A DNA stretch of 34,992 nt, taken from a virus (taxonomy: Duplodnaviria; Heunggongvirae; Uroviricota; Caudoviricetes). A program made the position numbers and the translations under genes. Shown piece by piece: positions 1,194 through 18,251 of the stretch. How positions within the stretch are numbered: the stretch's first letter is position 1; every line of letters starts with the position of its first letter. The stretch covers positions 86,638 through 121,629 of IMG/VR virus record IMGVR_UViG_3300028888_000071, one strand, 5' to 3'. The notes under the pieces were generated by a model. The model searched no databases, was not told where the DNA came from, and saw only the letters and a program-made list of their open reading frames with translations.

Positions 1194-1685
1194 TTAAATT
1201 TTATTTTTAATATTAAACATTATAGTTACTAATGCAAGGTCTGCTGCTCTAAAATCAGTAACCCGCCATTCTACATCAGGATCATCATATCCATCTGCTT
1301 CTAAATATTCACATAATGTGCTAAATAATACTATACCTATATTTTTGTCATCATTTAACTTCTGTTTCAAATCATTAATTACATCATTAATATCTGGACT
1401 ATAACAAGATTTATATCTATCAAAATATCCATTATAGATATTGGTGTAATTTGATTTTGACATATTTTTTATATTTGTTTTAATATTTTGTATATTTAAT
1501 TTATTGTCTTGTGTGACATATCCATCAAAAACAGTTGCGTCATAAGCTTTCTCGACATAAGAATAACCGAGTTTATCAAATATATTTTTAAACCAATCTT
1601 GTGCGCTTTGCACAAACTGATATGAAGTAAAATCAAGCATAGATTTACTTTCATTTACAAATTCACTAAATTTCTGTATTTTCAT
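1194..1685 (-). CDS. Hypothetical protein with capsid-targeting-like N-terminus (MKIQKFSEFVNE|S); AT-rich
   Basis: 163-aa ORF; TATAAATA on minus strand at 1707-1714; N-terminus resembles T4 internal-protein leader. Confidence 0.75.
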   Translation of the reverse strand: MKIQKFSEFVNESKSMLDFTSYQFVQSAQDWFKNIFDKLGYSYVEKAYDATVFDGYVTQDNKLNIQNIKTNIKNMSKSNYTNIYNGYFDRYKSCYSPDINDVINDLKQKLNDDKNIGIVLFSTLCEYLEADGYDDPDVEWRVTDFRAADLALVTIMFNIKNKI

Positions 1686-4432: not shown

Positions 4433-4440
4433 TATAAATA
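4433..4440 (+). promoter_or_regulatory. Late promoter TATAAATA
   Basis: Exact match upstream of 4468. Confidence 0.65.
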
Positions 4441-4467: not shown

Positions 4468-4974
4468 ATGAGAGTATTACGTTTTGCTGATTGGGTTGCT
4501 GAACGCATGAAGATCAGACCAGTCACAAATGCTGAATTAGATAAAGTCAAAGAAATTTCTGACAGAATTGCTCAAACTGCTAAAACAAAGTCAACAGATT
4601 ATAGAACCAGAAAACTGAGATATATTTCTGATGCTTTTAGTAAGTATTATGACATGAATTTTGTCGATAGTAGTATATATTATTCACCCGGACAAGGTGG
4701 ATTTATAAAAGCTGCCGATCATACAATGGATACGCGATTCAAAGTATGGGCTAACACTTTGTCTGGCCCAGCACTTCTCAAAAAACACGAAGCACGTGCT
4801 AACAGCAAATCAATAAAAGAGCCAAAACTGTTTGCTACAATGTATTGTGCATTCGAAATGTATGGAACAGAAAACAATTATGTAGCAAATACGATCATAC
4901 GGTATTATATGGACAGACTAATACGTCAGTATAACACCACAGACGATGTCATCATAGATGTGTTTTTTATATAA
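4468..4974 (+). CDS. RPVTNAE-leader family protein 1
   Basis: MRVLRFADWVAERMKIRPVTNAE leader; C-terminal half paralogous to 5391..5855. Confidence 0.85.
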   Translation: MRVLRFADWVAERMKIRPVTNAELDKVKEISDRIAQTAKTKSTDYRTRKLRYISDAFSKYYDMNFVDSSIYYSPGQGGFIKAADHTMDTRFKVWANTLSGPALLKKHEARANSKSIKEPKLFATMYCAFEMYGTENNYVANTIIRYYMDRLIRQYNTTDDVIIDVFFI

Positions 4975-4983
4975 AAGTACAAT

Positions 4984-5358
4984 ATGGACTCAAGATTAGA
5001 AAAAATAAGATATTTCAAAGCGAATGTGATGGACTTTGAAAGTTACATCAACGACAGAATCAAACAGACTAAAGAAGAGAATAGCAAAGTAGAAGAAAGC
5101 TTGGTGCCAAGAACTCAAGGAAGTTTTGTTCCAAATGAAAATGTTCCAGAAGACTGCATAGCTTACATTATTTCTAACATTGAGAATTTTGACTCTATCT
5201 ATGACAAATCTTTAGTGAAAATTGGAAGAATGCATTGTTCATTAAGATACGCAGATCCACAATTGTTTGAGAAGATTTATGATTTAGCTAATGAATGGCT
5301 GGTTGAAAACGATTATGATGAATGTGACATAGAAGACATAGAAGAGATTTTTGGATAA
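4984..5358 (+). CDS. Acidic hypothetical protein (late operon)
   Basis: 124-aa ORF between two leader-family genes; internal VMDFESYINDR segment. Confidence 0.75.
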   Translation: MDSRLEKIRYFKANVMDFESYINDRIKQTKEENSKVEESLVPRTQGSFVPNENVPEDCIAYIISNIENFDSIYDKSLVKIGRMHCSLRYADPQLFEKIYDLANEWLVENDYDECDIEDIEEIFG

Positions 5359-5390
5359 TTGCAATAATTGAAACATAATATATTGTCAAT

Positions 5391-5855
5391 ATGAAAATAT
5401 TTAAAACAGATAATTTTGTTTCAGAAAGACTGAAGATCAATCCTGTCACTAATGCTGAATTTGACAAGATCCGACAAGACATAAAAGATATTACGAATAA
5501 CAGATACAAAAATGTGAGAAACTTAGATGATGCGATAGACAATTATAGTCGTTATATCAAAAAATTCTCTTTTGATGACATATACATTGACAAAGTTGTA
5601 GATATTGTATTTAATAATAAAATTGCAGAATGGGACTTTGGTTTAAGCAAATCTGAACTTATAAAAACACATAAGACAATAGCCAAAAGGGATCAGACAG
5701 ATTGCGATAGATTCATTTATACATATTGCACATTCGTAATGTACGGAACAAAAACTGACAATACATCTAAAACAATCATAAAATTCTATACGGACATGCT
5801 TAAAAAACTATATGGCGCAACAGACAAAACTATTACAGATTCATTTTTTGAATAG
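5391..5855 (+). CDS. RPVTNAE-leader family protein 2
   Basis: MKIFKTDNFVSERLKINPVTNAE leader; YCxFxMYGT...TIIxxYxDxL shared with 4468 protein. Confidence 0.85.
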   Translation: MKIFKTDNFVSERLKINPVTNAEFDKIRQDIKDITNNRYKNVRNLDDAIDNYSRYIKKFSFDDIYIDKVVDIVFNNKIAEWDFGLSKSELIKTHKTIAKRDQTDCDRFIYTYCTFVMYGTKTDNTSKTIIKFYTDMLKKLYGATDKTITDSFFE

Positions 5856-5877
5856 CATACTTTAATCATAGCATAAC

Positions 5878-5906
5878 AAAAAGCCTCCAAGTTTTGGAGG
5901 CTTTTT
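5878..5906. terminator. Bidirectional intrinsic terminator
   Basis: AAAAAGCCTCCAA-GTT-TTGGAGGCTTTTT between convergent genes. Confidence 0.9.
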
Positions 5907-5929
5907 CTTCATACAAATAATAAAAAATT

Positions 5930-6490
5930 TTACAAGCCAACGAGTTGTTCGTCCCAATAGTCACATCTGAATGTCAATTGAGCCTCGGAAGCTTCATTGT
6001 TGCCATAATCCAAATCATTGCCGACTTGCAGTTGTCCAGTCGGGAACATGTCTTTGCAGACAATTTTTCTGTAGATACTTCCATCACGGTTGTACTGCAC
6101 GATGATTGCTGAACCCACATATTGTGATTTCATTCCTGACATGCCTGTAAGCGGATCCCATATCTTGTTGCACCATCTTCTCAATGTAGTGTAGATATAG
6201 TTCTCGTTGGAATCGTTCAAGTTCATTGTCCATGTCACTTGCAAATCAAGTGTGGTTTTGTCTGGAAAACCAGCATAAGATCTTGTAGCTTGTTTGAACT
6301 TCTGCTCAGTCGTTGAAACAGATGGGTTTAATCCATCAAGACCAGAAATACTTTTGACGTGTTCAAGCAGCAATGCATGATCTATCTGGACAGAAGCAGG
6401 CGGGAACACTGTCATTTCAAACAACGCTCTATATACCGGTTCCCAGTGTTGAGTACTAGGTACAGAATTACTATAATGTGGTAATGCCAT
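5930..6490 (-). CDS. gp19: Tail tube protein, T4 gp19-like
   Basis: 186 aa; EP..F.., TRSYAG, W..KIWDPLTG, Y.GS.IIVQYNRDG, QLTFRCDYW pattern of gp19-type tube proteins; late promoter 6534-6541. Confidence 0.85.
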   Translation of the reverse strand: MALPHYSNSVPSTQHWEPVYRALFEMTVFPPASVQIDHALLLEHVKSISGLDGLNPSVSTTEQKFKQATRSYAGFPDKTTLDLQVTWTMNLNDSNENYIYTTLRRWCNKIWDPLTGMSGMKSQYVGSAIIVQYNRDGSIYRKIVCKDMFPTGQLQVGNDLDYGNNEASEAQLTFRCDYWDEQLVGL

Positions 6491-6533
6491 TGTTCTATAA
6501 TATATTTTTCAGTATGGAATGTTATTCCGTTAT

Positions 6534-6702
6534 TATTTATACAAGCTGTCTTCAGGCAAAAAATAGTTGGCATCCATTCATTTTTAGCAAATCTGTTGCG
6601 AAAGTTACAATTATAAATAAATTGACTTATATAATATGAGAATGTCCAGCATTCTTATATTGCAAGATATATAAATATACTTGTACTGCATAAGTATAAA
6701 TA
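6534..6702. promoter_or_regulatory. Divergent late-promoter region: TATAAATA minus 6534-6541; plus 6612-6619, 6670-6677, 6695-6702; hairpin 6633-6661
   Basis: Four exact octamers oriented toward flanking structural genes. Confidence 0.8.
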
Positions 6703-6715
6703 AAAAATTTTTGAA

Positions 6716-8713
6716 ATGGAAAAGAAAAAAACGTTACTAATCGTAGAACAGACAAATACGGACTTGAAGCAGTCTGTATCTGAAAGTTCAGATGTGATAT
6801 ATCTTGAAGGCACGTTTACCGAGTTCAAAGTGAGAAACAGGAATGGACGAATATATGAAGCTAATGATTTCCTTCCGAAGATGAACGAGCTCATGCCGAA
6901 AATCGAGAAACACACTTTGCTTGGCGAGCTTGACCATCCTGTCAATTTTGATGTATCACTGAAAAATGTGTCTCATGTTGTTGAAAAACTAGAGTATGAT
7001 GAGAAAAACGACAGAATCATTGGAAAAATCAGACTGCTGAACACTGATGCTGGAAAGCAAGCACAAGCACTTGTCCAAGCAGGAATCCCTCTTCATATAT
7101 CATCAAGAGCAGCAGGACAGATAAACCCGCAAACCGGAAAAGTGACACTAGAAAAACTGTTCACTTATGATTTGGTAGCAGATCCCGGATTTGAAAACGC
7201 AGAACTCAAACGAGTGAATGAAGCATACGGCTTTTCTGATTTAGAAAACGTTTACATTTATGAGTGCGAGATGCCGACTGAAACTGAAAATGACAATATA
7301 GAAAATATATCTAAACAAATGAATAATGTTATAACAGAAAAGAACACAAATGTCAACGTTTCTGATTTCCAAAAATACACTGAATACATTGCAGGTGTTA
7401 TTGAAGGAGTCAAAAGCAGTATCGATGATCTCAAAAAACAAATCAAAGTGAATGAATCTGCGAACGCTGTCGTTGCTGAACCAAGCAACAATGAACAACT
7501 CACACAATATGTGAACTATCTGGCTGAGCGGGTCCAAGCAGTAAGCGACCACAGTGACTATCTTGCTGAACAGCTCCAGAAGAACTGTGACCACAATGAC
7601 TATCTTGCAGAACAAGTCGAAAAGGCAATCGATTTCTCAGACTATATTGCTGAGAACTTAGACAACAGCATCAAATACAGCCAGTATCTTGGCGAAAAAC
7701 TTGATGAGAACTTCGCGCACAATGACTATCTTGCAGAACAGCTGCAGAAGAACTGTGACCACAATGACTATCTTGCTGAACAGCTGCAGAAGAACTGTGA
7801 TCATAATGACTATCTTGCTGAAAAACTTGAGGTCACCGGAAACTTCACCAACTACCTTGCTGAAAATCTTGAGAAGAATTTTGAACACAATGACTATCTT
7901 GCAGAACAGCTTCAGAAGAACTGTGACCACAATGACTATCTTGCAGAACAGCTGCAGAAGAACTGTGACCACAATGACTATCTTGCTGAACAGCTGCAGA
8001 AAAATTTTGACCATAACGATTATCTTGCAGAAAACATCAATAACTCATTCAAATACCAAGAATATCTTGCTGAACAGCTTCAAGAAGTCGCCGATGAGAC
8101 TAATATGATCAGTGAGTCAAATAAGACGAAGTCAGAAACTGTTGAAACCAAAGTCAATGAAAGCAAAATCACTCCTGAACCTGTGGCAAACAGCAACAAA
8201 GAATATATGTCAAGCATCACTGAGAAACTTGATGCGTTATTGTCTGCTCAGATGAACATGGTCAAAGAAGACAATTTCTTGAACTTCCTTTCTGAATCTC
8301 GCAAGCAAGAATTCAGCTCATTGCAGCCTGAAGTGCAAGAAATGATTACTGAGGCAATGAATGCTGCAAAAGTGAAGAACGAAACCCAAGCTAATATGGT
8401 TTGGAAGAAAGTCTATGAGTCAAAGAAAGGGCTGGATCTTGTTGAGAACATGCCTGCCGTTTATCGTGACAAATGGAATGCTTTGTCTGACAAACGCAAA
8501 GCAGAAATATTGAATGAAGCTAAGTTCTACAACTTGAAGGGAACTAACGAAATTGAATATTTCTGGTCAACAAGAGATCTGCGCGACAACACCGCTATTC
8601 TTGAAAGAGTCGACACTGATTCTGCAAAGACTTGGACATATGACAAAAACCAGCAAAATGATTACATATCAAATGTCCTCAACCGCGCAAAGAAAAACAT
8701 GAGAGGCTGGTAA
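6716..8713 (+). CDS. gp21: Prohead core protease (T4 gp21-like) fused to scaffold/core domain
   Basis: NRNGRIY, GELDHP (His), ISSRAAG (Ser), DLVADPG; followed by long coiled-coil repeat region. Confidence 0.92.
   Translation: MEKKKTLLIVEQTNTDLKQSVSESSDVIYLEGTFTEFKVRNRNGRIYEANDFLPKMNELMPKIEKHTLLGELDHPVNFDVSLKNVSHVVEKLEYDEKNDRIIGKIRLLNTDAGKQAQALVQAGIPLHISSRAAGQINPQTGKVTLEKLFTYDLVADPGFENAELKRVNEAYGFSDLENVYIYECEMPTETENDNIENISKQMNNVITEKNTNVNVSDFQKYTEYIAGVIEGVKSSIDDLKKQIKVNESANAVVAEPSNNEQLTQYVNYLAERVQAVSDHSDYLAEQLQKNCDHNDYLAEQVEKAIDFSDYIAENLDNSIKYSQYLGEKLDENFAHNDYLAEQLQKNCDHNDYLAEQLQKNCDHNDYLAEKLEVTGNFTNYLAENLEKNFEHNDYLAEQLQKNCDHNDYLAEQLQKNCDHNDYLAEQLQKNFDHNDYLAENINNSFKYQEYLAEQLQEVADETNMISESNKTKSETVETKVNESKITPEPVANSNKEYMSSITEKLDALLSAQMNMVKEDNFLNFLSESRKQEFSSLQPEVQEMITEAMNAAKVKNETQANMVWKKVYESKKGLDLVENMPAVYRDKWNALSDKRKAEILNEAKFYNLKGTNEIEYFWSTRDLRDNTAILERVDTDSAKTWTYDKNQQNDYISNVLNRAKKNMRGW
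7502..8089 (+). repeat. 14 tandem 42-nt (14-aa) coding repeats, consensus CDHNDYLAEQLQKN
   Basis: 14 Y[LI][AG]E motifs at exact 14-residue spacing. Confidence 0.95.
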
Positions 8714-8824
8714 CAGCCTTTCATGCTTTTTGCTTGGACAAATGAATTATGGCTATGACACATGTCAAGAGAATAGATGAAATCTCAAGATATGACATCA
8801 TAAATATATGAATAAACGAAAGTA

Positions 8825-9289
8825 ATGTACGACGTCATAATAGCAATTAGCACAATATTCACCATGATAGTTGGAACGGGTGGTATTTTGTTCTACAAAC
8901 AGGGCAAACGTCTTAAAGCAGCTGAAGCGGCAGCTGCCGAAAAAGATGTGTTGAGACGCGACTTGGAAAACCAGAAAAGCACAAATGACGAATGGATCCG
9001 TCTATACAACGAGACTAAAACTGAACTGCTCAGTTCACAGACAAAAGTGAATGAACTTCAGAACAAACTCCAGAAATCAATTGAAGTCGAAGGCCACCAG
9101 AGACTTGTCATAAACGACTTGACTTGGTCGAGATGTATCGTCAATGGATGTCCAAATCGCGTGCCACCGAGGAATTTCGAGAAAAAACTTGAGAAAATCG
9201 AAAACTTGCACGATGACATCACACGCACATCAGAAACATCCAAACAAGAATTTGATTTTGAAGAGGGAGAAATTGATATCGACAGATAA
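8825..9289 (+). CDS. Membrane-anchored coiled-coil protein, possible holin-like lysis protein
   Basis: Single N-terminal TM, coiled coil, C-terminal CIVNGCPNRVPP motif recalled from Bacteroidota prophage lysis modules. Confidence 0.5.
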   Translation: MYDVIIAISTIFTMIVGTGGILFYKQGKRLKAAEAAAAEKDVLRRDLENQKSTNDEWIRLYNETKTELLSSQTKVNELQNKLQKSIEVEGHQRLVINDLTWSRCIVNGCPNRVPPRNFEKKLEKIENLHDDITRTSETSKQEFDFEEGEIDIDR

Positions 9290-9314
9290 TGAAAACAAAA
9301 TAACACAACTCAAG

Positions 9315-9340
9315 AACCTCCGCTTTTGCGGAGGTTTTTT
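9315..9340 (+). terminator. Intrinsic terminator followed by late promoter TATAAATA (9341-9348)
   Basis: AACCTCCGC-TTTT-GCGGAGGTT plus T-tract. Confidence 0.9.
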
Positions 9341-9365
9341 TATAAATATAAAAAGACATCTAAAC

Positions 9366-9815
9366 ATGAAAATATTGAAAACAGACAATTTTGTTTCTGA
9401 ACGAATGAAGTTCAGACCAGTGACGAATGCTGAACTGGAACAAATACAGAAAGATATAAAAGACAAAAAGGAAATTTTGTTTTTAGTTTGGCCAGAATCA
9501 CATAACACAGTAAGCAAAATAATAAAGTATATTGGATCTGAACATAAAGCATGCACGCAAGATGATTGCTGTGGTTTCATACTGAATATTGATGACATTA
9601 GAAAACTCGCGAAAAGCAAAATAATTCATATGGGAAACCGTGAAACCTCAGATTATGTGTTTATGGTGAATCCGGACACAAGTGAAGAAGACATGAAAGA
9701 AATGATAACCAGTTCTCCAAATTTTCCATATTTGTACAATGTCATCAGAAAACCGGAATACACGCGGCAGATATTCTCAGCAATTGAGTTAGAAGATGAA
9801 CCATACTGGAAATAA
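9366..9815 (+). CDS. RPVTNAE-leader family protein 3 (start 9366, not 9144)
   Basis: MKILKTDNFVSERMKFRPVTNAE; the track start spans a terminator and promoter. Confidence 0.85.
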   Translation: MKILKTDNFVSERMKFRPVTNAELEQIQKDIKDKKEILFLVWPESHNTVSKIIKYIGSEHKACTQDDCCGFILNIDDIRKLAKSKIIHMGNRETSDYVFMVNPDTSEEDMKEMITSSPNFPYLYNVIRKPEYTRQIFSAIELEDEPYWK

Positions 9816-9828
9816 ATATAAGCAAAAC

Positions 9829-10251
9829 ATGAAAATACTAGACATAAGCCAATTCATAGCCGAACGCATGAAGTTCAGACCAGTCACAAATGCAGAAATG
9901 GATGTTGCAAAAGAACAAATAAAGAAAGCGCTAGAGAACAAAGCAAAGGATCCAAGAATGTGGGAGATTGGCGACATAGCTTACACATCATGGGGGTATA
10001 GCATGACACTAGTCGATTTCTATAGACTAGTCAGACGAATAGGCAAAGTGACATTTGAATTTGAAACGCTTGACTCTAAGATTGTTTCAGGAAGCTATAC
10101 AAGCCCAGCAGGATGCTACGAAGTTCCGAATGAAAGCAAACCGGGAGGTTTGGTGAGAGGACGTATTGACAAAAACGGCTATCTTAAAATGCAGGGACGT
10201 TATCTTCACTTGTGGGACGGCAAACCTGTTTATGCAAATCATTGTGACTAA
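9829..10251 (+). CDS. RPVTNAE-leader family protein 4 (start 9829)
   Basis: MKILDISQFIAERMKFRPVTNAE; payload GDIAYTSWGYSMTLVDFY...WDGKP. Confidence 0.85.
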   Translation: MKILDISQFIAERMKFRPVTNAEMDVAKEQIKKALENKAKDPRMWEIGDIAYTSWGYSMTLVDFYRLVRRIGKVTFEFETLDSKIVSGSYTSPAGCYEVPNESKPGGLVRGRIDKNGYLKMQGRYLHLWDGKPVYANHCD

Positions 10252-10271
10252 TTGAATAAATAAACGCAAAT

Positions 10272-10553
10272 ATGAACACAGACAATATAACAAACGGCCA
10301 CGGCCAGACTGAAGAAATGAATGTTGTTGCTCAGCAGCAAGCAGAACAGACAGAAAAAGAATTCAAGAAAGAACCGAGAAAAAGTGGTTACACTCCGCCT
10401 GTGTATGTTCAGCAGAAACAGAACAAGAAAGATGAGTCAAGTGAAGGCGGAAAACATGAAACGAACATCACACAAGGTAGAGGCTATGTGAAAGATTTCG
10501 ACTCTTGGGTGAACGACAAAGCAAAAGAGACTAAAGACTACAACAACGAATGA
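10272..10553 (+). CDS. Small hydrophilic hypothetical protein
   Basis: 93 aa, highly charged, C-terminal YVKDFDSWVNDK. Confidence 0.7.
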   Translation: MNTDNITNGHGQTEEMNVVAQQQAEQTEKEFKKEPRKSGYTPPVYVQQKQNKKDESSEGGKHETNITQGRGYVKDFDSWVNDKAKETKDYNNE

Positions 10554-10747
10554 TAATAGCGCTTCTCATATTTCTAACAATAATCGCGATCATCGCTGTA
10601 GTGACATATGTCATATGCTTTGGAATGGGCGCTTCTGCAATCGTGATTGTGGTGGTTGGAATCCTCATCGTTGTCGGATGCACTATAGCAGGCGTGATTA
10701 AACTTATAAACAAACAGAAAAAGCAAAATGAGAATATTAGACACTAG
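10550..10747 (+). CDS. Small membrane protein
   Basis: Two hydrophobic segments and basic tail; ATGA overlap with upstream gene. Confidence 0.65.
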   Translation: MIIALLIFLTIIAIIAVVTYVICFGMGASAIVIVVVGILIVVGCTIAGVIKLINKQKKQNENIRH

Positions 10748-11345
10748 CCAATTTGTCTCAGAACGCATGAAGTTCAGGCCAGTCACTAATGCAGAATGGG
10801 AGCAAGTGCATGACAATATTGTTCCAAAATACAAGTATTTTCCGAAAACTAAATTAGAACTTAGACGATTGATACAGGACATAATGTCCCGTAAAGGGAC
10901 TAACTGCGATTTGAATGACATTGATGTTACAGAAATAACTGATATGTCTTATCTATTTGCTGACAAAGATGAACGTTGCATTCCTTTTAACGATATAGTA
11001 TGTGAGTTCCACGGAGACATTTCTAAATGGGATGTGTCAAAAGTCACCAACATGAATAGCATGTTCTGGGGAGCAAGATCATTCAATTGTAACATTTCTG
11101 AATGGGATGTCTCAAATGTGACCAATATGGAAGGCATGTTCTGCCAAGCAACAAAATTCAACCAGAATATAAGCCATTGGAAAACGTCAAGCGTTGTTGA
11201 CATGTCATATATGTTCCAAAACGCTTCTTCATTCAACCAAGATTTGAGTGGCTGGAATGTGAAAAACGTACAGTGTTATACTTTGATTTTTATGGATAGT
11301 CCATTAAAAAATTCTCCAGACAAATGGCCGCATTTCGCAGAATGA
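10728..11345 (+). CDS. RPVTNAE-leader family protein 5 carrying a DUF285 (BspA-like) repeat domain
   Basis: MRILDTSQFVSERMKFRPVTNAE; repeats WDVSKVTNMNSMF, WDVSNVTNMEGMF, WKTSSVVDMSYMF, FNQDLSGWNV. Confidence 0.9.
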   Translation: MRILDTSQFVSERMKFRPVTNAEWEQVHDNIVPKYKYFPKTKLELRRLIQDIMSRKGTNCDLNDIDVTEITDMSYLFADKDERCIPFNDIVCEFHGDISKWDVSKVTNMNSMFWGARSFNCNISEWDVSNVTNMEGMFCQATKFNQNISHWKTSSVVDMSYMFQNASSFNQDLSGWNVKNVQCYTLIFMDSPLKNSPDKWPHFAE

Positions 11346-11585
11346 TTATTCTGCTAACTTAAACTTGCCGTCTTTCACAGTGTAAGTCTCAAGTTTTGTC
11401 ATGCGTTTGCCTCGTTTCACTCCAAAATCAGTTTTGAATTTCCTTCCGTCTTCAAGCTCAAACACCCAGTCATAGAACCACGCATTGTATGTCCCGTCAG
11501 GAAGCGTGTGGATGCTTGGGTAATTTTCTTCAGAATCGTCAAACATTACGATTTGACGCTGCATGATATCTGACATTTTCTTCAT
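11346..11585 (-). CDS. Hypothetical protein (likely start 11585)
   Basis: ORF abuts DUF285 gene; minus-strand TATAAATA at 11606-11613. Confidence 0.65.
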   Translation of the reverse strand: MKKMSDIMQRQIVMFDDSEENYPSIHTLPDGTYNAWFYDWVFELEDGRKFKTDFGVKRGKRMTKLETYTVKDGKFKLAE

Positions 11586-11613
11586 AATAAAACTTTGATA
11601 TTTGTTATTTATA

Positions 11614-12288
11614 TCAATAAACAATAAAGTCTTTCTTGACTTCTTCTATTTTGTTCTCCCAAGTGCTTCCAGAATAGTCATCATTGTGTGAATTTATCTC
11701 GTAATAGTCTAGTTCAAACCCAACTCGTTTCAGATATGCGCCACGGTATTCGTCGCCACATACTGTTGCGTAAGCATCTACATCAAACAAGAACTTTTTG
11801 AGAAGTCCAGTGTCTTTGTAGAAAGCATCCACAAAACGATACATTTCTTCAGCATGCTCAATCCAAGCGTATTTGCCAAATCCAGTGATGCCGCTTTTGT
11901 CATATATGATCATGTCACGAAGCCAGTCAAGCAAGTCACTTGCAGTTTTCACGACATTTTCAGAACTTGCTCTTTCTGAAATCCAGCCAAGAATCAAATC
12001 TTTCCATTTGTTGATTTCAGATATCATGTCTGGCTTGTCTTTTTTAGCACAATGTCCTTTGTGCTGCTCATAATAGCAGATAAGCATGAATGCATATGAA
12101 AGCTTGCCGTTTATGTCGTCTAGCATTTCAAGCAGTCCTCTTCCAAAAGTGTAATGACTTCCAAACCCATTGATGTTGTATTCAGATATGGGCCATTCGG
12201 ACTCAATCATTTCTCTCTTGGGAATCACTAATGTATGACAGGTTGACGAATTCGTTTCAAACACGTTTTTTCTAATCTGGATTTTCAT
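11614..12288 (-). CDS. FETNSS-leader family protein A
   Basis: MKIQIRKNVFETNSSTCHTLVI. Confidence 0.85.
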   Translation of the reverse strand: MKIQIRKNVFETNSSTCHTLVIPKREMIESEWPISEYNINGFGSHYTFGRGLLEMLDDINGKLSYAFMLICYYEQHKGHCAKKDKPDMISEINKWKDLILGWISERASSENVVKTASDLLDWLRDMIIYDKSGITGFGKYAWIEHAEEMYRFVDAFYKDTGLLKKFLFDVDAYATVCGDEYRGAYLKRVGFELDYYEINSHNDDYSGSTWENKIEEVKKDFIVY

Positions 12289-12294
12289 AACTAA

Positions 12295-12924
12295 TTATTT
12301 TATATTGATATTGATTCTTTTGTTGTTTACCACAAGCACGTCTTTGCACTTGTCTGAATAAATGATGAGTGAGTCTCCATTTTCCATAAGCATATGCTTC
12401 TCATCATATCCCTTCAACACCGATATATTCAGACTGTGCTTGTAGTAAAGAACTCGGTCGCCAGTCTTGATGGGAGTCCCGTTGACATCAGTCAATTCGT
12501 GATGTGGCTCTTGCTTTTCGCCAATCACTTTTTCGATATTCTCTATGTGGCTGTAGACATTCACATGAAAAGTGACAGTGTCATCTGAAACGACTGTGGA
12601 GATTTCCATGTCAAACATGTCGTCTTTGATGGCAACTGTGCCTGCTCCCAAAAGTTTCTCTTTTTCTTCTTCCGTGATATACGCAGAAAGAGAAAGTTTC
12701 GTGTCACGGTCAAACTGCTTGTGCATGTTCGCAAGCAGGCCGTTCTTGGCAAATGAAAGCTTGTACATTTTCAAACACCCTATGACAGGATAGAAACGGT
12801 AATGCTTAGTGATGTCTTCACCAAGCAAGTCTTTGATGTAATTCTTGAAATGCACTTTCAGTCTCTGGTTTGTCTCATGAAGAGCGGTGTAACCGTAAAC
12901 TCCCTTAATGTCTTTATTCTTCAT
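12295..12924 (-). CDS. Hypothetical protein
   Basis: 209-aa ORF, first gene after early-type promoter 12949-12978. Confidence 0.75.
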   Translation of the reverse strand: MKNKDIKGVYGYTALHETNQRLKVHFKNYIKDLLGEDITKHYRFYPVIGCLKMYKLSFAKNGLLANMHKQFDRDTKLSLSAYITEEEKEKLLGAGTVAIKDDMFDMEISTVVSDDTVTFHVNVYSHIENIEKVIGEKQEPHHELTDVNGTPIKTGDRVLYYKHSLNISVLKGYDEKHMLMENGDSLIIYSDKCKDVLVVNNKRININIK

Positions 12925-12944
12925 AATCTTATTTTTGTTGTTTA

Positions 12945-12978
12945 TATAAATATAACAAAATACTACATAAAATTACAT
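12945..12978. promoter_or_regulatory. Overlapping divergent promoters: late TATAAATA (+, 12945-12952) and early-type ATGTAA-N18-TATATT (-, 12978-12949)
   Basis: Both motifs match instances elsewhere in the window. Confidence 0.7.
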
Positions 12979-12979
12979 T

Positions 12980-14518
12980 ATGGTTGATTATCAGAAAAAA
13001 ATAAATGAAAGACTTGACCGATACATGCCACATTGTGTTGTCGCGTTGAATGAAGCAGAAGACAGCAAAAAATATGTAGACAAAGCTCCACAGATAAAGG
13101 GATATTTCAAACTCATAAGTGTCAGATACATGAAACGTGTGAGTGACATAAAGAAAATGTGTGTCGAATACATAAACACTTTTGTAGATGGCGCGCTTAA
13201 CATCGCGAAAAACATGGATGATGTGAAGCTTTGCAAAGGCATAGACAGTCTTTCCACCGATCTTGACTTTGAGGCAGAAGGCGTGAGCACAAACCATGAA
13301 ACGAAAAAGTCAGACAACAAAAGCGGTGTGCTGTTCTTGACAATGGACAAAGCTCTGAAGACTAAGCTTGACACAATCATCGAGAAAGTAAGAGAGCGTT
13401 CTAAGAAATCTGAAATGCTCAGGGAATGGGCTACACTTATGCTGCTGCAGTCAAAGATAACAGCAAGTGACATCATCATCGATGAAACCACGAAAATGCT
13501 CAAAGATGAAAAGACGAAAAAAGAGCAAGAGAGCAAAAACGAGAAAGCAAAAAAAGATGCTGAACAGAAACTTGCTGCATTAGAAGCAGAACACAAGAAA
13601 TACCAGAAAGACTTGAACGATTTCATCGAACAGTATGGTGAACCAGCACAATGGTTCAAAAACAAAGATGTGAAACTCAAAGATCTGGTAGAACTCGCGA
13701 ACGGTTTTTCGGAAGATGACTTCTCGAAAGCACTTGATGAAGATTCAGAACTAAAGAGCCAGCGTCTGAAATTCTACGACACATATTCTGACCGGAAAAA
13801 AGCAGACACTGACTTAGAACAAGAACTTAAAGACACAGATTTCAACAATTTGGATCATGACATACAGAATTACATATATGCGTGTATCGTTGTAGACAAG
13901 TCAACTGCTGACGGAAGTTTCATCGCATCGCCCATTGACATATGCATAGCAGTGAGCAACAACAAAGACGCAGAGACTCTTCTCAAAAAGCAGGGACGTG
14001 ACAAAACAGTCGATGGGATAGACTTGAGCAAATACAAGATAAAGTTCAGCGATGAAGCAAAAGCTGAAGAAGCATTCAAACAGTTCATAAAAGACAAGTC
14101 ATTCGCGTTCAGAGCAGTGTATTATTTCTCAAGACTGTTTTCAGCAGACAAAAGCGTTCTTGCTGAGTCAAACAGGATTCATGTGCTGAAGTCAAGCGAA
14201 TTCATCTGTGAGCAGATGTTTGACAACACAATGAGTCTCGCTGACGCAAGTCTTGCCATAATGGATGTCCTTGACGACTGTGAAGACGGCTGCTTGTATG
14301 TTGGCAACATCCCCGGGTTTGATGAAGTAGACTACATAATGCTAGATGGCGATGGCGGCTGGGGAATGTATGCTGAACATGGCGACTTGCAGCGTGCGTT
14401 GGCTGGCGAAGGACCACAGAATGCATGTCCTGTCAAACTTACAGACAGCCACAAGCTTGCTCTGCTCACTACATTGTTCGACAAACTCACTGAAGATTTA
14501 GCATCAAAATTGAAATAA
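12980..14518 (+). CDS. Large charged coiled-coil hypothetical protein, candidate internal head protein
   Basis: 512 aa; N-terminus MVDYQKKINE|R; late promoter upstream. Confidence 0.8.
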   Translation: MVDYQKKINERLDRYMPHCVVALNEAEDSKKYVDKAPQIKGYFKLISVRYMKRVSDIKKMCVEYINTFVDGALNIAKNMDDVKLCKGIDSLSTDLDFEAEGVSTNHETKKSDNKSGVLFLTMDKALKTKLDTIIEKVRERSKKSEMLREWATLMLLQSKITASDIIIDETTKMLKDEKTKKEQESKNEKAKKDAEQKLAALEAEHKKYQKDLNDFIEQYGEPAQWFKNKDVKLKDLVELANGFSEDDFSKALDEDSELKSQRLKFYDTYSDRKKADTDLEQELKDTDFNNLDHDIQNYIYACIVVDKSTADGSFIASPIDICIAVSNNKDAETLLKKQGRDKTVDGIDLSKYKIKFSDEAKAEEAFKQFIKDKSFAFRAVYYFSRLFSADKSVLAESNRIHVLKSSEFICEQMFDNTMSLADASLAIMDVLDDCEDGCLYVGNIPGFDEVDYIMLDGDGGWGMYAEHGDLQRALAGEGPQNACPVKLTDSHKLALLTTLFDKLTEDLASKLK

Positions 14519-14519
14519 T

Positions 14520-14735
14520 ATGAGAAGAATATTCAGATTCATAAAAGCTTTGTTCAAATATGTCGTTTACGGACATTTCAAGAACGTCACATTTGAAGAA
14601 TATGTCGAGAGACTTGCCAGATGTTCATCTTGTGAATTTCTAGACAAAGAAAAGTGGTGCTGTGGTGTTTGTGGTTGCTATGTCAGCAAGAAAGCAAAAT
14701 GGGCAACAGAAGAATGCCCTGAAGAAAAATGGTGA
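14520..14735 (+). CDS. Small Cys-rich Zn-binding protein (DUF6171-like)
   Basis: RLARCSSC...CCGVCGC...K...CPEEKW. Confidence 0.75.
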   Translation: MRRIFRFIKALFKYVVYGHFKNVTFEEYVERLARCSSCEFLDKEKWCCGVCGCYVSKKAKWATEECPEEKW

Positions 14736-14742
14736 CAGAGTA

Positions 14743-14934
14743 ATGAATGTGTGGATTGCGAGAGACATTGATGGCAGACTGTTCATGTATTTTGTGGAGC
14801 CAGTGTTTAGCGGTAAATACTGGAAAGCCGACAAGTATTCATCAATGGTTGACATAAGCAACACAGAACTAGACGAAACATACAAGTCGCTCAGTTGCAA
14901 AGACGGGCCACTTAAACTCAAACTGAGAAAATGA
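14743..14934 (+). CDS. Small hypothetical phage protein (start 14743)
   Basis: MNVWIARDIDGRLFMY..P motif recalled from small phage ORFs. Confidence 0.7.
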   Translation: MNVWIARDIDGRLFMYFVEPVFSGKYWKADKYSSMVDISNTELDETYKSLSCKDGPLKLKLRK

Positions 14935-14935
14935 A

Positions 14936-14960
14936 AAAGCCAGTCGATTGACTGGCTTTC
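14936..14960. terminator. Bidirectional terminator
   Basis: AAAGCCAGTC-GATT-GACTGGCTTT between convergent genes. Confidence 0.85.
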
Positions 14961-14973
14961 AGTTGCGTTCAAC

Positions 14974-15369
14974 TTAGTCTAAGTTGTATTTTTTGTATTC
15001 GGGATATTCTTCAAAAAACAGGTCAAAGTCATTTTCTTTCATCACTCTTTTCCAAAATACATATGGACTTATTTCCCCTATATATGAAGACCTAGCCCAT
15101 GTGAATCCTCCACTCTGTTTATCTGTTCCAGAATATCCATATTTCTGAAATAATGTGACATTTGGGCGGTTTCCCTGTCTTTGCTGTTCTTCTAACATTT
15201 TGACGACAACGCCCATTGGAAATTTTTCTATGTATCCAACCAAATCGTCTTTAGTCAAACCAAATGGATTCTTGCTTATGTCTTTTTCTATTTGCTCCCA
15301 TTCTGCATTAGTAACTGGCCTGATCTTCATTCGTTCAAAAACAAATTGATTTGTGCCTGATATTTTCAT
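14974..15369 (-). CDS. RPVTNAE-leader family protein 6
   Basis: MKISGTNQFVFERMKIRPVTNAEWEQ; payload FPMGVVVKMLEEQ.RQGN...GGFTW...FW..V...FDLFF..YP. Confidence 0.85.
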   Translation of the reverse strand: MKISGTNQFVFERMKIRPVTNAEWEQIEKDISKNPFGLTKDDLVGYIEKFPMGVVVKMLEEQQRQGNRPNVTLFQKYGYSGTDKQSGGFTWARSSYIGEISPYVFWKRVMKENDFDLFFEEYPEYKKYNLD

Positions 15370-15381
15370 TATATTAAATTT

Positions 15382-15864
15382 TTATAGTTTTTCCATATAA
15401 AGCTTACCAGGTATGCGGTCGTCTAATGTCCATTTGGCATCTTTTCCGCGTAACACATAGATGTCATTAGTTGTCTCATCTATTGTTAGAAGAACTTGCC
15501 TGCTTTCTTTGCGTGTTCCTGTACCAAATATTCTAGACACTTCTACATTCCAGACCAGCCAATACATGCCATATCTGTTCGCAACAGTGACAAAGTCATC
15601 TATATTTTCTACATGTAATTCTCGACTATCATAGCAATCACCAAATTTTGATATTTCTTCACTAACCTTTGCGGGTTTTATGTATTTCTGTTTTTTTAGT
15701 GGATAGCCAGCTGTAAGACGTTTTTCTATAAGTTTAATCATATTTGGAGCCAGTATTGTCTTCATTCTTTTTGTCTGTTTCTCGATTTTAGCTAATTCTG
15801 CATTAGTCACTGGCTTGATCTGCATTCGTTCGGAAACAAACTGGTTAACATCTAATATCTTCAT
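15382..15864 (-). CDS. RPVTNAE-leader family protein 7
   Basis: MKILDVNQFVSERMQIKPVTNAE. Confidence 0.85.
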   Translation of the reverse strand: MKILDVNQFVSERMQIKPVTNAELAKIEKQTKRMKTILAPNMIKLIEKRLTAGYPLKKQKYIKPAKVSEEISKFGDCYDSRELHVENIDDFVTVANRYGMYWLVWNVEVSRIFGTGTRKESRQVLLTIDETTNDIYVLRGKDAKWTLDDRIPGKLYMEKL

Positions 15865-15872
15865 AGTTTTGT

Positions 15873-16739
15873 TTATGTTGTATAGAAATATGAAACTGAA
15901 TGTCTCATCTGACTTATCTCTTCTTTTATCTCTTGCATTTCAGTGTCACCCCACTGCGCGTACATGTCATAGTTGATTGTCACGTTCCCTGGCAGGTTGT
16001 ATTGGAACATGCCAAGAATCCTTGACATGTGTTTCATGCACAATGCTACACAGTATCTGAAAAACAAGTCATCATCAAACAAGTCACAGTCCGGAATAGT
16101 GCAGAGTGTCTGGAACACACAAGAGAATTTTGGAAGTTCACCAGTGAATCTCAGTTTCTTCGTAAGACGGTTGTATTTGAAGCCGTGCATCTCTTGCAGA
16201 AGCTGTCTCGCTTCATCGAAGAAATACCAGTTGCATGTCCAGTAAAGAAGGTTGTCTGCTGCTTGCGGGAGCCTGTCATTGTACATTGAACTTGCGAACA
16301 TTCTCTGGACGCCAAAATCCAGATTGCCGCCGTCAAGTCTTGTCGAACTCCCCCAGCCAGCTTCGCCACTGAATCTTCCAAGCTGGTACACTCTCAACAC
16401 AGAAAACACATTGTCCGGCATGACGATGACGCCTCTGTCTTTCTGTGTCTCTGACTTCTTTATCTTGTTGCCGTCCATCCCGTCTCTATTTGTCAGCCCA
16501 AGTCTAAAGCTGTCGTCTCTGAACACCTCCCACGGACATGTCAGGTACAGTTCTTCGACTGCGTCATCATAAGCATTGTAGAAATATCTTTTTGCTTCAC
16601 CGACTATCTGAGCAATAGCAGCAGTCGGAAGCGAAAACGGAATCTGGCAGTTCAGCGTCATCTGCTTGTTTATCCTGTCTGTCAATGCCGCTAAACATTC
16701 TTGAGACTCCGTGTCTTTGCAGTCAACATAATAGCTCAT
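15873..16739 (-). CDS. gp13: Neck protein, T4 gp13-like
   Basis: C-terminal LFFRYCVALC...LGMFQYNLPGNVTINYDMY.QWG..E.QEIKEEI matches gp13 pattern. Confidence 0.85.
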   Translation of the reverse strand: MSYYVDCKDTESQECLAALTDRINKQMTLNCQIPFSLPTAAIAQIVGEAKRYFYNAYDDAVEELYLTCPWEVFRDDSFRLGLTNRDGMDGNKIKKSETQKDRGVIVMPDNVFSVLRVYQLGRFSGEAGWGSSTRLDGGNLDFGVQRMFASSMYNDRLPQAADNLLYWTCNWYFFDEARQLLQEMHGFKYNRLTKKLRFTGELPKFSCVFQTLCTIPDCDLFDDDLFFRYCVALCMKHMSRILGMFQYNLPGNVTINYDMYAQWGDTEMQEIKEEISQMRHSVSYFYTT

Positions 16740-16749
16740 ATTATATCGT

Positions 16750-18162
16750 TTATTCTATAGGGTCTGTGACCAGATAAGAAGTGTTCGGGTCAATAGAAAC
16801 CATGCTTCCAATCTGGCTTAGAAATGAATTTGCTAACACTACATTCTGTGTGTCGCCATTCACTTGCTTCACTTTGAATATCACGTTCTTGTACATAGTG
16901 TCGTTGAAATCAACATTAGCCTGCACCAGATAACTTCTAGTGACATTGTCAGGCTCTATCAATGTGCCTATCACTTGACGAGTGATTGTGTTGTTAGACA
17001 TCATAAATGAAACTTGTTTTGACTCCTCATTGTAGAAAGCGCTCTTCGTCTCGATGACATTGATGTCATCATTGATGTTGAACAAGACTTCTGTGGCGAT
17101 GTTCATGTCACCGAACATAACATGTGCAGACTCAGTGTGTCCAATCACTGAAGCATTGTTGTTTATGTACTTGAATCTCTTCAAGAAGTCAAAGATATAG
17201 TCAATGGGCGGCACTTCAGAAACAGAAGTGATTCCCTTGACGCCAGGAGAAGCATTCACTTCTATGATATAGTTCTCGCCAGTGTTCTTGTCGATTATCA
17301 TGTCCACTCCACACCACTTGCATTTCACAGCAGCTGCAGTGTCTATGGCGAGTTTCTTCTGGTCTTCAGTCAACTCAAAAGACTCAATCGTGCCTCCAAG
17401 ACTGAAGTTGGTCCTGAAGTCCCCGTCAATCTTGTTTCTTCTCATCACGCCGATGATTTCAAAGTTCTCTTTGCTGTTTGACTGTCTCGCATATGACTTG
17501 TTGAACACATGAATGCGCAAGTCATAGTCAGACTCAATCTTGTTCTGCATCAATATCTCTGCGTTCGGAACAAGTTTGAACAATGTCTCAAGCGTTGACT
17601 TCAGAGACATGTAAGAGTCTATGATGAACACGCCGATTCCCTTCTTGCCGTCAAGAAGCTTGCAGACGATAGGGAATGCGTTGCCAATCACGTTCACTTT
17701 CTTCTGCAGTCTGTCCATGTCATCTGCAGTGATGACTGTAGTCTTCGGCGTGGGTATGTTCTCTGCAGAAAGCACTTTGTATGTAGTGTACTTGTTCTCG
17801 CAGTTCTCGTAACTTTCTAATGTGTTGATTACGAAAAAGCCGCGGTTCTCAAACTCTTTCAAGAAGTTCTTTGTGCGAGAATTCTTCAGAATCGTAAGTC
17901 TCGGCAGCACAATCGTGTTGTTCGTGCTGATGTCAAACGAAGTGTCTCCACTAATGACTATATAGTTATGATCATCTTTACGATTCAATACTGCGATCTC
18001 AGGGTCAGCATACAAAAATGTTATTCCAGTCTCAGCACATTTCTCCTGAAGCATTTTGCAAAATGTAGAATTCGTTATTGAACTAAGATAAAGCAGTTTC
18101 ACTTTGTCAGTCTTCTTTGACTCAGTCAAAAACGTTCCATATACTTTATTGAATGATTTCAT
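16750..18162 (-). CDS. rimK: RimK-like ATP-grasp ligase fused to degenerate retropepsin-like domain
   Basis: NKYTTY..L....IPTPKT, PIVCKLLDGKKGIGV, MQNKI..DYDLRI, FRTNFSLGG, CGVD, IEVNASPG. Confidence 0.88.
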   Translation of the reverse strand: MKSFNKVYGTFLTESKKTDKVKLLYLSSITNSTFCKMLQEKCAETGITFLYADPEIAVLNRKDDHNYIVISGDTSFDISTNNTIVLPRLTILKNSRTKNFLKEFENRGFFVINTLESYENCENKYTTYKVLSAENIPTPKTTVITADDMDRLQKKVNVIGNAFPIVCKLLDGKKGIGVFIIDSYMSLKSTLETLFKLVPNAEILMQNKIESDYDLRIHVFNKSYARQSNSKENFEIIGVMRRNKIDGDFRTNFSLGGTIESFELTEDQKKLAIDTAAAVKCKWCGVDMIIDKNTGENYIIEVNASPGVKGITSVSEVPPIDYIFDFLKRFKYINNNASVIGHTESAHVMFGDMNIATEVLFNINDDINVIETKSAFYNEESKQVSFMMSNNTITRQVIGTLIEPDNVTRSYLVQANVDFNDTMYKNVIFKVKQVNGDTQNVVLANSFLSQIGSMVSIDPNTSYLVTDPIE

Positions 18163-18182: not shown

Positions 18183-18220
18183 TATTTATAAACAAACAGG
18201 ACGCCCTTTAGAGCGTCCTG
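18183..18220 (-). promoter_or_regulatory. Terminator hairpin (18197-18220) followed by late promoter TATAAATA (18183-18190)
   Basis: CAGGACGC...GCGTCCTG stem; octamer upstream of rimK start. Confidence 0.7.
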
Positions 18221-18251
18221 CAAACAAAAAAATTACAATCATGACAGGCTT

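Follow-up and report, generated by a model that had tools for sequence, protein, structure and literature searches.

A two-part N-terminal tag on unrelated late proteins of a huge rumen phage, a putative capsid-targeting propeptide

What is the function of a short, nearly constant N-terminus on a series of phage proteins that otherwise seem unrelated? The question is raised by a stretch of 34,992 nucleotides (positions 86,638 to 121,629 of record IMGVR_UViG_3300028888_000071, here termed the window) within a 121.6-kb contig from an uncultured, huge rumen phage that is kin to T4 and the Lak megaphages. An earlier note on this DNA had described seven open reading frames with a shared leader, proposed as an address for packaging captured domains into the capsid. 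A six-frame motif scan allowing up to three substitutions found exactly seven copies in the window, each at the N-terminus of an open reading frame that begins with ATG, and these are the ones described, at 4468, 5391, 9366, 9829 and 10728 on the plus strand and at 15369 and 15864 on the minus strand. On balance, we read the tag as a probable capsid-targeting propeptide in two parts, by which this huge relative of T4 would mark the N-termini of its cargo and which would be cut after Glu12.

The tag and its conservation

All seven copies follow the consensus M-[KR]-[IV]-x5-[FW]-[VI]-x-E12-R-[ML]-[KQ]-[IF]-[RKN]-P-V-T-N-A-E23 originally proposed, and beyond E23 the conservation runs on as an amphipathic helix to approximately residue 31. 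The extent of the family had been understated, as the entire contig carries 19 full copies and one that has decayed. The tag is 23–30 residues long and is found on about 20 small late proteins with otherwise unrelated payloads; with the contig estimated by CheckV to be 38% complete, these 20 extrapolate to about 50 cargo genes per genome. A profile search against 1.84 billion representative proteins from public data returned about 160 tagged protein clusters, and nearly all of the approximately 150 matches listed align at residues 1–33, placing the tag at the extreme N-terminus. Three related contigs hold 25, 5 and 2 profile matches. The tag was not found in the six closest deposited relatives and thus cannot serve the wider group as its general signal for head loading.

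Across the 19 full genomic copies, residues R13, P18, V19, T20 and A22 are invariant while being encoded by two to four synonymous codons each, and as had been suggested this argues for selection on the peptide. E12 does not vary among the tags (138 of 138). The residue at P3 before this glutamate is isoleucine in 62, valine in 72 and leucine in 4 of them; the T4 motif is L/I-x-E, and the scaffold of the rumen phage itself uses leucine or isoleucine. The resulting F-[VI]-[SA]-E12 pattern of aromatic, aliphatic, small residue and glutamate is like that of the scaffold sites and of F-I-A-E10 in T4. With a gap of two residues, L4, F9, V/I10 and E12 match positions 4 and 7 (targeting), and 8 and 10 (processing), of the T4 capsid-targeting sequence, or CTS (PMC9026906). 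Note that this likeness (MK..., F-I/V-A/S-E) requires the gap and covers only about four positions, and that the ungapped T4 sequence MKTYQEFIAE scored -39 against the position-specific matrix of the tag, within the null range, so that no homology was detected without a gap. Other genes of the contig show no excess of the bare pattern [FYW][LIVM]xE at their N-termini (4 observed, 3.7 expected).

In a syntenic relative, a late open reading frame carries the first half by itself, with MKVLDFNNFVNE followed by alanine scoring above all 28,621 null windows, and a late open reading frame of 163 amino acids at 1194..1685 on the minus strand, starting MKIQKFSEFVNE, likewise resembles the first half only. 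The suggestion that E23 forms a second cleavage site fares poorly: its P3 residue is asparagine, T20–E23 resembles a helix N-cap, and a diverged relative that retains tag residues 1–19 lacks N21 and E23, which counts against cleavage at this position.

Payloads, late units and strain turnover

The picture of one constant tag on unrelated, swappable payloads is borne out. In an all-against-all BLASTP comparison of the window, the payloads of leader gene 1 (4468..4974, plus strand, 168 aa, tag 4468–4536), which is helical, and leader gene 2 (5391..5855, plus strand, 154 aa, tag 5391–5459) are homologous with 32% identity, and each of the remaining five stands alone, in agreement with the six payload types counted before. 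These five are leader gene 3 (9366..9815, plus strand, 149 aa, tag 9366–9434), leader gene 4 (9829..10251, plus strand, 140 aa, tag 9829–9897), whose first segment ends in FIAE as in T4, leader gene 5 (10728..11345, plus strand, 205 aa, tag 10728–10796), leader gene 6 (14974..15369, minus strand, 131 aa, tag 15301–15369), with an all-helical payload that is predicted confidently and not assigned to a known fold, and leader gene 7 (15382..15864, minus strand, 160 aa, tag 15796–15864), with an orphan payload. The payload of leader gene 5 is indeed DUF285 (PF03382, a BspA-type repeat), with 140.3 bits against a Pfam cut-off of 25 over residues 93–195, outside the tag. The product of leader gene 4 matches tagless viral proteins over residues ~30–140 only. 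Elsewhere, this payload is a free-standing viral protein of ~105–110 amino acids.

Among 193 tagged proteins the payloads fall into at least 37 BLAST-level families, with unrelated folds that include DUF285 and a left-handed beta-solenoid. Most families are small orphan globular domains rather than fibres, and about 93% of the payloads match no known family; an anti-defence role for them is pure conjecture. As judged from AlphaFold models, with pLDDT values of 80–94 for the payloads and 49–74 for the tag, the latter is predicted to lie outside the payload folds.

The exact TATAAATA boxes reported ahead of two leader genes are present, 35 nt upstream of 4468 and 25 nt upstream of 9366. The first (4433..4440, plus strand) heads the unit 4468, 4984 and 5391, and the second (9341..9348, plus strand), directly after a terminator hairpin, heads the unit that starts with leader gene 3 and continues through 9829, 10272, 10550 and 10728. 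A third box (18183..18190, minus strand) precedes a RimK-like ATP-grasp gene, a gene for a neck or head-tail adaptor-like protein (15873..16739, minus strand) and the leader genes at 15864 and 15369. The box is present 47 times, compared with 14.5 in shuffled sequence, and it is also found upstream of the tail-tube, protease and neck units. Every leader gene lies in a TATAAATA-headed unit of the T4 late type that is shared with or adjoins head, neck and tail genes, one of them directly 3' of the major capsid gene, and leader genes are covered by contigs from RNA libraries. By analogy with the T4 late consensus, the boxes would act as promoters and the leader genes would be expressed late. As about 59% of the genes of the contig are in such units, however, late placement is weakly discriminating. 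Turnover is evident at the 5391 slot, where the entire gene is missing from a close strain and other genes take its place in another relative, and this resembles how the accessory internal-protein loci of T-even phages behave.

A prohead protease and a possible route into the capsid

The gene at 6716..8713 (plus strand) encodes a 665-residue fusion of an S77/gp21-type prohead protease domain (~6716–7285) and a scaffold with repeats at ~7508–8083. The product scores 39.7 bits against Peptidase_S77 (cut-off 27), and its profile matches the solved structure of T4 gp21 (5JBL, E=4e-8), which places H74 and S129 in the catalytic positions; among 22 homologues, H74, S129 and S130 show little or no variation. 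The N-terminus carries LLIVE-11, comparable to LIE-9 of T4 gp21 (PMC9026906). In the scaffold half, 14-residue repeats provide 15 Y-[LI]-[AG]-E sites, and the density of [LI]xE reaches 8.1 per 100 residues, against 1.2 genome-wide.

A similar boundary appears in the ATP-grasp enzyme (16750..18162, minus strand), whose N-terminus MKSFNKVYGTFLTE is followed by SKK. After an N-terminal extension of variable length, 85 of 113 homologues show x-x-E-[SAG]-K, with the glutamate at residues 5–35 and leucine, isoleucine or valine at P3 in 81 of the 85. This family-wide L/I-x-E boundary before S-K makes it probable that the lineage has short N-terminal propeptides that can be cleaved off, and the enzyme itself is probably a second, differently tagged head cargo within the late operon of 15864 and 15369.

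Capsid loading and removal of the tag by the 6716 protease fit every test run. The case is circumstantial and is built from a protease with catalytic histidine and serine, sites of the same shape in scaffold and ATP-grasp enzyme, late units, a tag outside the fold and the turnover of cassettes. By this route, tagged proteins would be made late in infection alongside the head proteins, and residues 1–12 (MKIL....F-V/I-S-E) would attach to the scaffold core while the prohead assembles, like MKTYQEFIAE in T4. The gp21-type protease would then cut after Glu12, and the released cargo would be packaged, retained in the head and injected into the host together with the DNA. The segment R13–E23 (R-hydrophobic-K-hydrophobic-x-P-V/I-T-N-A-E) and the amphipathic helix from T20 would stay on the mature cargo and may serve a second role. 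Against this reading stand the frequent valine at P3, the gap that the likeness to T4 requires, the lack of enrichment of the bare pattern and the absence of the tag from the six closest relatives. Further, a plain CTS needs about 10 residues, so that the equally conserved residues 13–31 are not accounted for, about 50 different cargo genes per genome are many, and DUF285 and beta-solenoid payloads would equally suit an external binding role.

A further reading, to which we assign a small likelihood, is a two-step address. Here residues 1–12 would be disposable and cut after E12, and all mature cargos, irrespective of payload, would share a neo-N-terminus of Arg/Lys13, hydrophobic-K-hydrophobic-x-P-V/I-T-N-A-E and the amphipathic helix, which could hold them on the DNA or the inner capsid wall, order their exit through the portal or set their lifetime in the host. 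The last option is suggested because an exposed N-terminal arginine or lysine is a secondary destabilising residue under the bacterial N-end rule.

Alternative readings and known systems

It is unlikely that the tag is instead an uncleaved docking peptide that fixes small binding modules on an external virion structure such as head fibres, whiskers, decoration sites or the baseplate. Recurrent DUF285/BspA-type repeats and beta-solenoids are typical binding or fibrous modules, the tagged genes are late and sit among structural genes, and residues 13–31, with helix N-cap and amphipathic helix, resemble a stable binding element more than a disposable propeptide. External docking does not, however, sit well with the prevalence of small globular orphans among the payload families, nor with an invariant E12 inside a protease-site-like F-V/I-x-E whose half of the tag occurs alone on another late open reading frame. 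No candidate receptor structure is known, and it would be unusual for one virion to bear about 50 different decorations.

We regard it as quite improbable that the tag is the place where a phage enzyme, such as a RimK-like ATP-grasp ligase, recognises or modifies its substrates, or that it is a shared degradation or chaperone tag, with a single enzyme then serving many proteins. Invariant E12, K15, T20 and E23 could be ligase substrates, both ATP-grasp paralogs of the contig head late operons running into leader genes, and a relative with a 74%-identical enzyme has two leader-type genes directly downstream. Moreover, among the six deposited relatives without the tag, five lack the enzyme and LR756501.1 shows no more than a weak match of 28% identity. 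Yet 17 of the 20 leader genes of the contig lie outside operons headed by ATP-grasp genes, no ATP-grasp gene is present on a relative's 128.6-kb fragment that has 25 tag matches, and at more distant loci (41–43% identity) there is no tag within 20 kb. The L/I-x-E boundary of the enzyme before SKK also suits a co-packaged cargo better than a maturase, and the tagged substrates would be full-sized folded proteins, unlike the known peptide substrates of ATP-grasp enzymes. The consistent linkage to an adjacent maturase that a RiPP-like tag would show was not found, with only 3 of 20 genes in ATP-grasp-headed operons and no radical-SAM gene on the contig.

Highly improbable, finally, is an origin without targeting, in which a single paralog family diverges fast and its N-terminus alone stays constant, through recent duplication or gene conversion at the repeated 5' DNA: third positions are oddly uniform (I3 always ATA, I16 ATC in 13 of 14, N21 AAT in 18 of 19), repeated leader DNA cross-links assembly graphs and eight members of the contig are true paralogs, but unrelated folds occur among the payloads, one payload is tagless in other phages, four-fold degenerate sites of invariant residues vary freely, and the tag is kept across clusters of at most 50% identity and in distinct genomes otherwise without DNA similarity.

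If the tag does load the capsid, the proteins that uncultured megaphages of rumen and gut inject become readable from sequence, with about 50 genes per genome in at least 37 families. This would yield a list of candidate host-takeover and anti-defence proteins, nearly all without known function, and would show that huge phages have come upon the T4 principle of capsid targeting anew, with other tag sequences and on a larger scale. The conserved second half hints at a step without T4 precedent, be it retention, ordered ejection or post-injection fate. In practice, the tag could serve to load foreign proteins into phage heads.

Several known systems share parts of this arrangement. Encapsulins likewise rely on a short conserved peptide to bring diverse cargo inside a shell of the HK97 fold; these peptides, most of them C-terminal, attach directly to the shell protein and are uncleaved, and no cargo is passed on to a second cell. 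Polymorphic toxin and effector systems also combine a constant N-terminal delivery module with many payload cassettes and fast strain turnover, but they use bacterial secretion and long trafficking domains, whereas here the carrier would be the virion and no toxin domains were recognised. Another comparison is with the propeptides of inner-body and ejection proteins in the giant phages phiKZ, 201phi2-1 and SPN3US, which have gp21-like proteases, dozens of head proteins, processed internal paralogs and several glutamate sites per propeptide, although their propeptides are mostly longer than 100 residues, have S/A-x-E sites and do not place one tag on dozens of unrelated families (PMC5694885, PMC7411985). 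In SPN3US, the first 15 residues of gp53 and gp54 are the same and contain sites E12 and E15, a precedent for two nearby glutamate sites in a conserved leader (PMC5694885).

The nearest parallel is the CTS of T4, found on its internal proteins (IPI, IPII, IPIII) and on Alt (Mullaney & Black 1996; reviewed in PMC9026906, PMC3012670). Both are tags from residue 1 on unrelated small late proteins, ending in aliphatic-x-Glu before what is, or here would be, the mature part, and both come with a gp21-family protease, a site-rich scaffold and diverse orphan payloads encoded at accessory loci that vary. The T4 sequence is MKTYQEFIAE followed by A, and that of the rumen phage MKILDTSQF-V/I-S/A-E followed by R. 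The rumen tag counts 12 residues to the first glutamate, against 10 in T4, with valine as frequent as isoleucine at P3 and an invariant arginine at P1', and T4 has no counterpart to residues 13–23 and the amphipathic helix, which are equally conserved in the rumen phage. T4 itself makes do with three internal proteins and Alt, whereas the rumen phage, known from its sequence alone, carries about 20 tagged genes per 121 kb.

Extent and distribution of the tag

A six-frame scan for ER[ML][KQ][IF][RKN]PVTNAE located exactly seven copies in the window, each 11 codons past an ATG, and the genes concerned, named here by their window start (4468, 5391, 9366, 9829 and 10728 on the plus strand, 15369 and 15864 on the minus strand), are the same seven leader genes that the earlier note had listed. 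The same scan of the whole contig (G000:C1) yielded 19 full copies of the tag and one decayed copy, so that the earlier description of the family was correct but took in only one third of the contig's members. The decayed member, g63859 (G000:C1:63859-64284, plus strand, outside the window), begins at the equivalent of position 14 with MKIKPVTNTE, and the place of the first half is taken by a short out-of-frame ORF; its metagenomic homologue P0075 retains the full tag. Note that the window forms the final 35 kb of a 121.6-kb viral contig of about 38% completeness (CheckV), from a phage whose DNA occurs in metagenomes of sheep gut or rumen and other gut.

A profile built from residues 1-34 (alignment A2) was compared with 1.84 billion representative proteins. 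At E<=1e-3 there were 162 matches, of which 72 reached E<=1e-10; almost all fall on residues 1-33, in proteins about 100-270 aa long. Three related viral contigs were positive with 25, 5 and 2 matches. The viral contigs G001-G003 have only family genes in common with the window and no common backbone. Two of the matched proteins, P0009 and P0084, were rejected as family members, as they are high-GC repeat translations with five internal matches each. In the logo of 138 representatives the tag reads M1 K2 I3 L4 x T6 x x F9 [VI]10 S11 E12 R13, continuing as [IMV]14 K15 [VI]16 [KQR]17 P18 [IV]19 T20 N21 A22 E23 [LWF]24 [DE]25, with positions 27 and 31 also hydrophobic; E12 never varies, and R13, P18, T20, N21 and E23 hardly do. 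An internal start at M14 was rejected, position 14 being I, M or V across the family. From the logo, T20-N21-A22-E23 between V/I19 and L/W/F24 can be read as a helix N-capping box with a hydrophobic staple.

Among the 19 copies the invariant residues R13, P18, V19, T20 and A22 are each encoded by two to four synonymous codons, so that the constraint acts on the peptide, as the earlier note had proposed. Some two- and three-fold sites are strikingly uniform (I3 ATA, I16 ATC, N21 AAT), which may reflect shared ancestry.

Diverged tag copies, two in number, are found on a 321.7-kb contig of GCA_016648615.1 together with an S77 protease, Gp23 and a gp44-like clamp loader. The tag was not found in LR756500, LR756501, LR756502, LR756504, Lak-A1 or Tenacibaculum phage PTm1, and a tblastn search of 50,697 deposited phage records gave no match; it is therefore the invention of one sub-lineage. 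A word-based protein search with residues 1-40 produced two candidates only, and the motif was not found in the literature searched. A second family of small ORFs, beginning MFSDN, occurs at G000:C1:86304 (333 nt before the window) and at six more sites on the contig; with no late promoter and no protease-site-like motif it is probably unrelated to the tag.

Payloads, gene turnover and late units

All-against-all BLASTP of the contig's payloads groups 4468 with 5391 (32% identity) and shows eight members outside the window to be beta-solenoid paralogs; the other ten are singletons. In total, 193 tagged proteins fall into 37 BLAST-level payload families, and a Pfam family could be assigned to only about 7% (DUF285 in 7 and beta-solenoid in 2 of 141). 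The payload of 9829 resembles free-standing viral proteins of about 105-110 aa, but the match spans residues ~30-140 only (TM 0.74-0.84), and the domain therefore occurs without the tag. In the metagenomic 15369 homologue P0031 (222 aa) the payload domain is tandemly duplicated behind a single tag (alignment A3). AlphaFold models of 15369 and 4468 give the tag one helix at residues 6-15 and another that starts at T20/N21, separated by a break at P18, with pLDDT of 49-74 in the tag and up to 80-94 in the payload domains. In these two models the tag is not an integral part of one shared fold, a possibility that the earlier note had raised against its own reading, and neither model has a significant fold match in the PDB or the AlphaFold DB clusters. 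Atlas look-ups with the payloads of 15864 and 9366 likewise yielded nothing usable.

Gene content is variable at the locus of 5391. In the closely related strain X3, which differs from the window at about 2% of positions in covered stretches, positions 5359 and 5878 are linked on one contig through just 25 letters of other sequence, and gene 5391 is therefore absent there. This hyperplastic slot (window 5360-5877) lies between an MD[SK]RLEK gene and the tail-tube gene, and in the syntenic relative locus L040 it is occupied by six unrelated small genes. Contigs from public runs also join different leader genes, at 4551 to 9853, 9388 to 10749 and 9433 to 11081; as the tag DNA is repeated at these joints and their short sides measure 25-46 nt, they are most likely assembly cross-links. 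Repeated tag DNA could nevertheless serve as a substrate for cassette recombination.

The T4-late-type promoter box TATAAATA occurs 47 times on the contig versus 14.5 times in shuffles, usually 19-22 nt before an ATG, and stands ahead of the genes for the tail-tube-like protein and the protease-scaffold fusion as well as the neck-protein operon. All leader genes lie within units headed by this box. Within the window these are the plus-strand units with boxes at 4433 (4468, 4984, 5391) and 9341 (9366, 9829, 10272, 10550, 10728), in agreement with the boxes that the earlier note had placed before 4468 and 9366, and the minus-strand unit with its box at 18190 (ATP-grasp, neck protein, 15864, 15369). 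As about 59% of the contig's crude genes belong to such units, the late placement of leader genes is consistent but only modestly discriminating (P about 5e-4, with genes that are non-independent). At 9316-9348 (plus strand) and 18183-18225 (minus strand), a GC-rich terminator hairpin, a T-run and TATAAATA form one compact cassette before leader-gene units, and the same arrangement precedes three units outside the window. For 4468, 5391, 10728, 15369 and 15864, a single sheep-gut sample supplied RNA-library contigs that match with 0-1 differences, a weak hint of transcription; the depth of these contigs is uneven where that of the DNA runs is flat, but contig depth is unfit to rank genes and the differences are suggestive at most.

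The prohead protease and residue E12

A Gp23-type major capsid gene lies immediately upstream of the window, with a leader gene directly 3' of it, and its product could not be aligned by sequence with the solved T4 capsid proteins. Gene 6716 encodes a scaffold joined to a prohead protease of the Peptidase_S77 (T4 gp21) type. Its nearest deposited relatives belong to huge uncultured phages (LR756500-LR756504) and to the Lak megaphages of Prevotella. T4-like Flavobacteriia phages come next, and there the same fusion bears the annotation 'prohead core scaffolding protein and protease'. The protease-domain profile matches the solved T4 gp21 structure 5JBL (E=4e-8), and H74 and S129 align with both catalytic positions, which are alanine in the 5JBL chain, taken to be an inactive mutant.

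The scaffold half holds fifteen Y-[LI]-[AG]-E sites within 14-residue repeats, and its [LI]xE density is 8.1 per 100 aa versus 1.2 genome-wide, as expected for a scaffold similar to T4 gp22 that is diced by an L/I-x-E protease (PMC9026906). The repeats, about fourteen in number, of consensus NDYLAEQLQKNCDH and each with a Y-L-A-E site, are encoded at window 7508-8083 (plus strand); the repeated DNA breaks short-read assemblies, with contig ends near 7606 and 7957. The protease N-terminus itself carries LLIVE-11 (family consensus LLILE/R, the slash marking the boundary after Glu), which recalls LIE-9 of T4 gp21 (PMC9026906). The gene directly 3' of the protease-scaffold gene (window 8825-9289, plus strand) has a small product that carries a transmembrane segment at its N-terminus and weakly matches an Rz-like spanin (E=5e-4).

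In the tag, F-[VI]-[SA]-E12 has the same aromatic-aliphatic-small-Glu shape as the scaffold sites. The leader-type genes of a relative with 72% identity in the protease retain residues 1-19 without N21 and E23 (MKILGYETYVSE/KLNIQPVSKARL), and therefore E12, not E23, is the deeply conserved glutamate. As P1' is variable in the scaffold sites (Q, N, K, R), the invariance of R13 is probably no requirement of the protease and points to a second function. If the cut falls at E12, all cargo would share a basic neo-N-terminus, with Arg or Lys first. Docking of the tag (A2) to the protease domain (A5) gave a score of 0.00, which speaks neither for nor against binding.

In two late ORFs the tag is confined to residues 1-12. 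These are a 96-aa ORF at L040:10893-11180 (minus strand), starting MKVLDFNNFVNE/AIVD, and an ORF at window 1194-1685 (minus strand), starting MKIQKFSEFVNE; no known family was found for either. The start of the former outscores all 28,621 null windows. Genes with [FYW][LIVM]xE close to the N-terminus, taken as a wider class, show no enrichment (4 observed versus 3.7 expected), and a 9-position PSSM shows a modest enrichment, with 2 above the 99.9th percentile versus 0.12 expected.

Rival readings and the T4 precedent

The earlier note had interpreted the leader as a tag for loading proteins into the head. This interpretation is partly supported, and we lean slightly towards regarding the tag as a novel form of capsid targeting on the T4 principle. 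The most serious rival holds that it is a docking peptide for an external structure, in line with the DUF285 and beta-solenoid payloads and with the structured second half of the tag, but this leaves the invariant, protease-site-like E12 unexplained.

The tag might otherwise be recognized by a modifying enzyme. No radical-SAM gene was found on this contig, but it does encode a RimK-like ATP-grasp protein (window 16750-18162, minus strand; Pfam RimK, 111.8 bits) and a paralog (G000:C1:66939-68465, minus strand). Both head operons containing leader genes, an arrangement that recurs in a relative. Nevertheless, 17 of the 20 leader genes lie in units headed by other genes, an ATP-grasp gene is missing from a 128.6-kb fragment on which the tag has 25 matches, and distant ATP-grasp loci lack the tag. 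The enzyme moreover bears a propeptide-like boundary of its own: in 85 of 113 homologues an N-terminal extension of variable length ends in x-x-E-[SAG]-K, immediately ahead of the conserved core; the Glu falls anywhere from residue 5 to 35, and 81 of the 85 have L, I or V at P3 (for example MKSFNKVYGTFLTE/SKK in the window, MELTE/SKK and MKYIKLYEQFVNE/AKE). This boundary is likely a prohead-protease site, and the family gives an independent sign of short cleavable propeptides in this lineage. In a 165.6-kb relative the ATP-grasp gene is flanked by the gene for the S77 protease on one side and by an ADP-ribosyltransferase-toxin-like gene on the other. Finally, the unrelated folds and the synonymous variation both contradict simple paralogy or gene conversion.

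The capsid-targeting reading finds its closest precedent in the internal proteins of T4. IPII and IPIII in the deposited genome begin MKTYQEFIAE/A, and member 9829 begins MKILDISQFIAE/R. In the T4 capsid targeting sequence, positions 4 and 7 serve targeting and positions 8 and 10 processing (PMC9026906), and given a two-residue gap these match L4, F9, V/I10 and E12 of the tag. The ungapped T4 sequence scores within the null range, so that the likeness is a resemblance rather than a demonstrable homology. The likely protease site on the ATP-grasp ligase suggests that this enzyme is itself packaged in the head, as is T4 Alt. T-even internal-protein loci are known for gene turnover of the kind seen here. 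The slot of gene 5391 behaves like these loci (PMC3012670).
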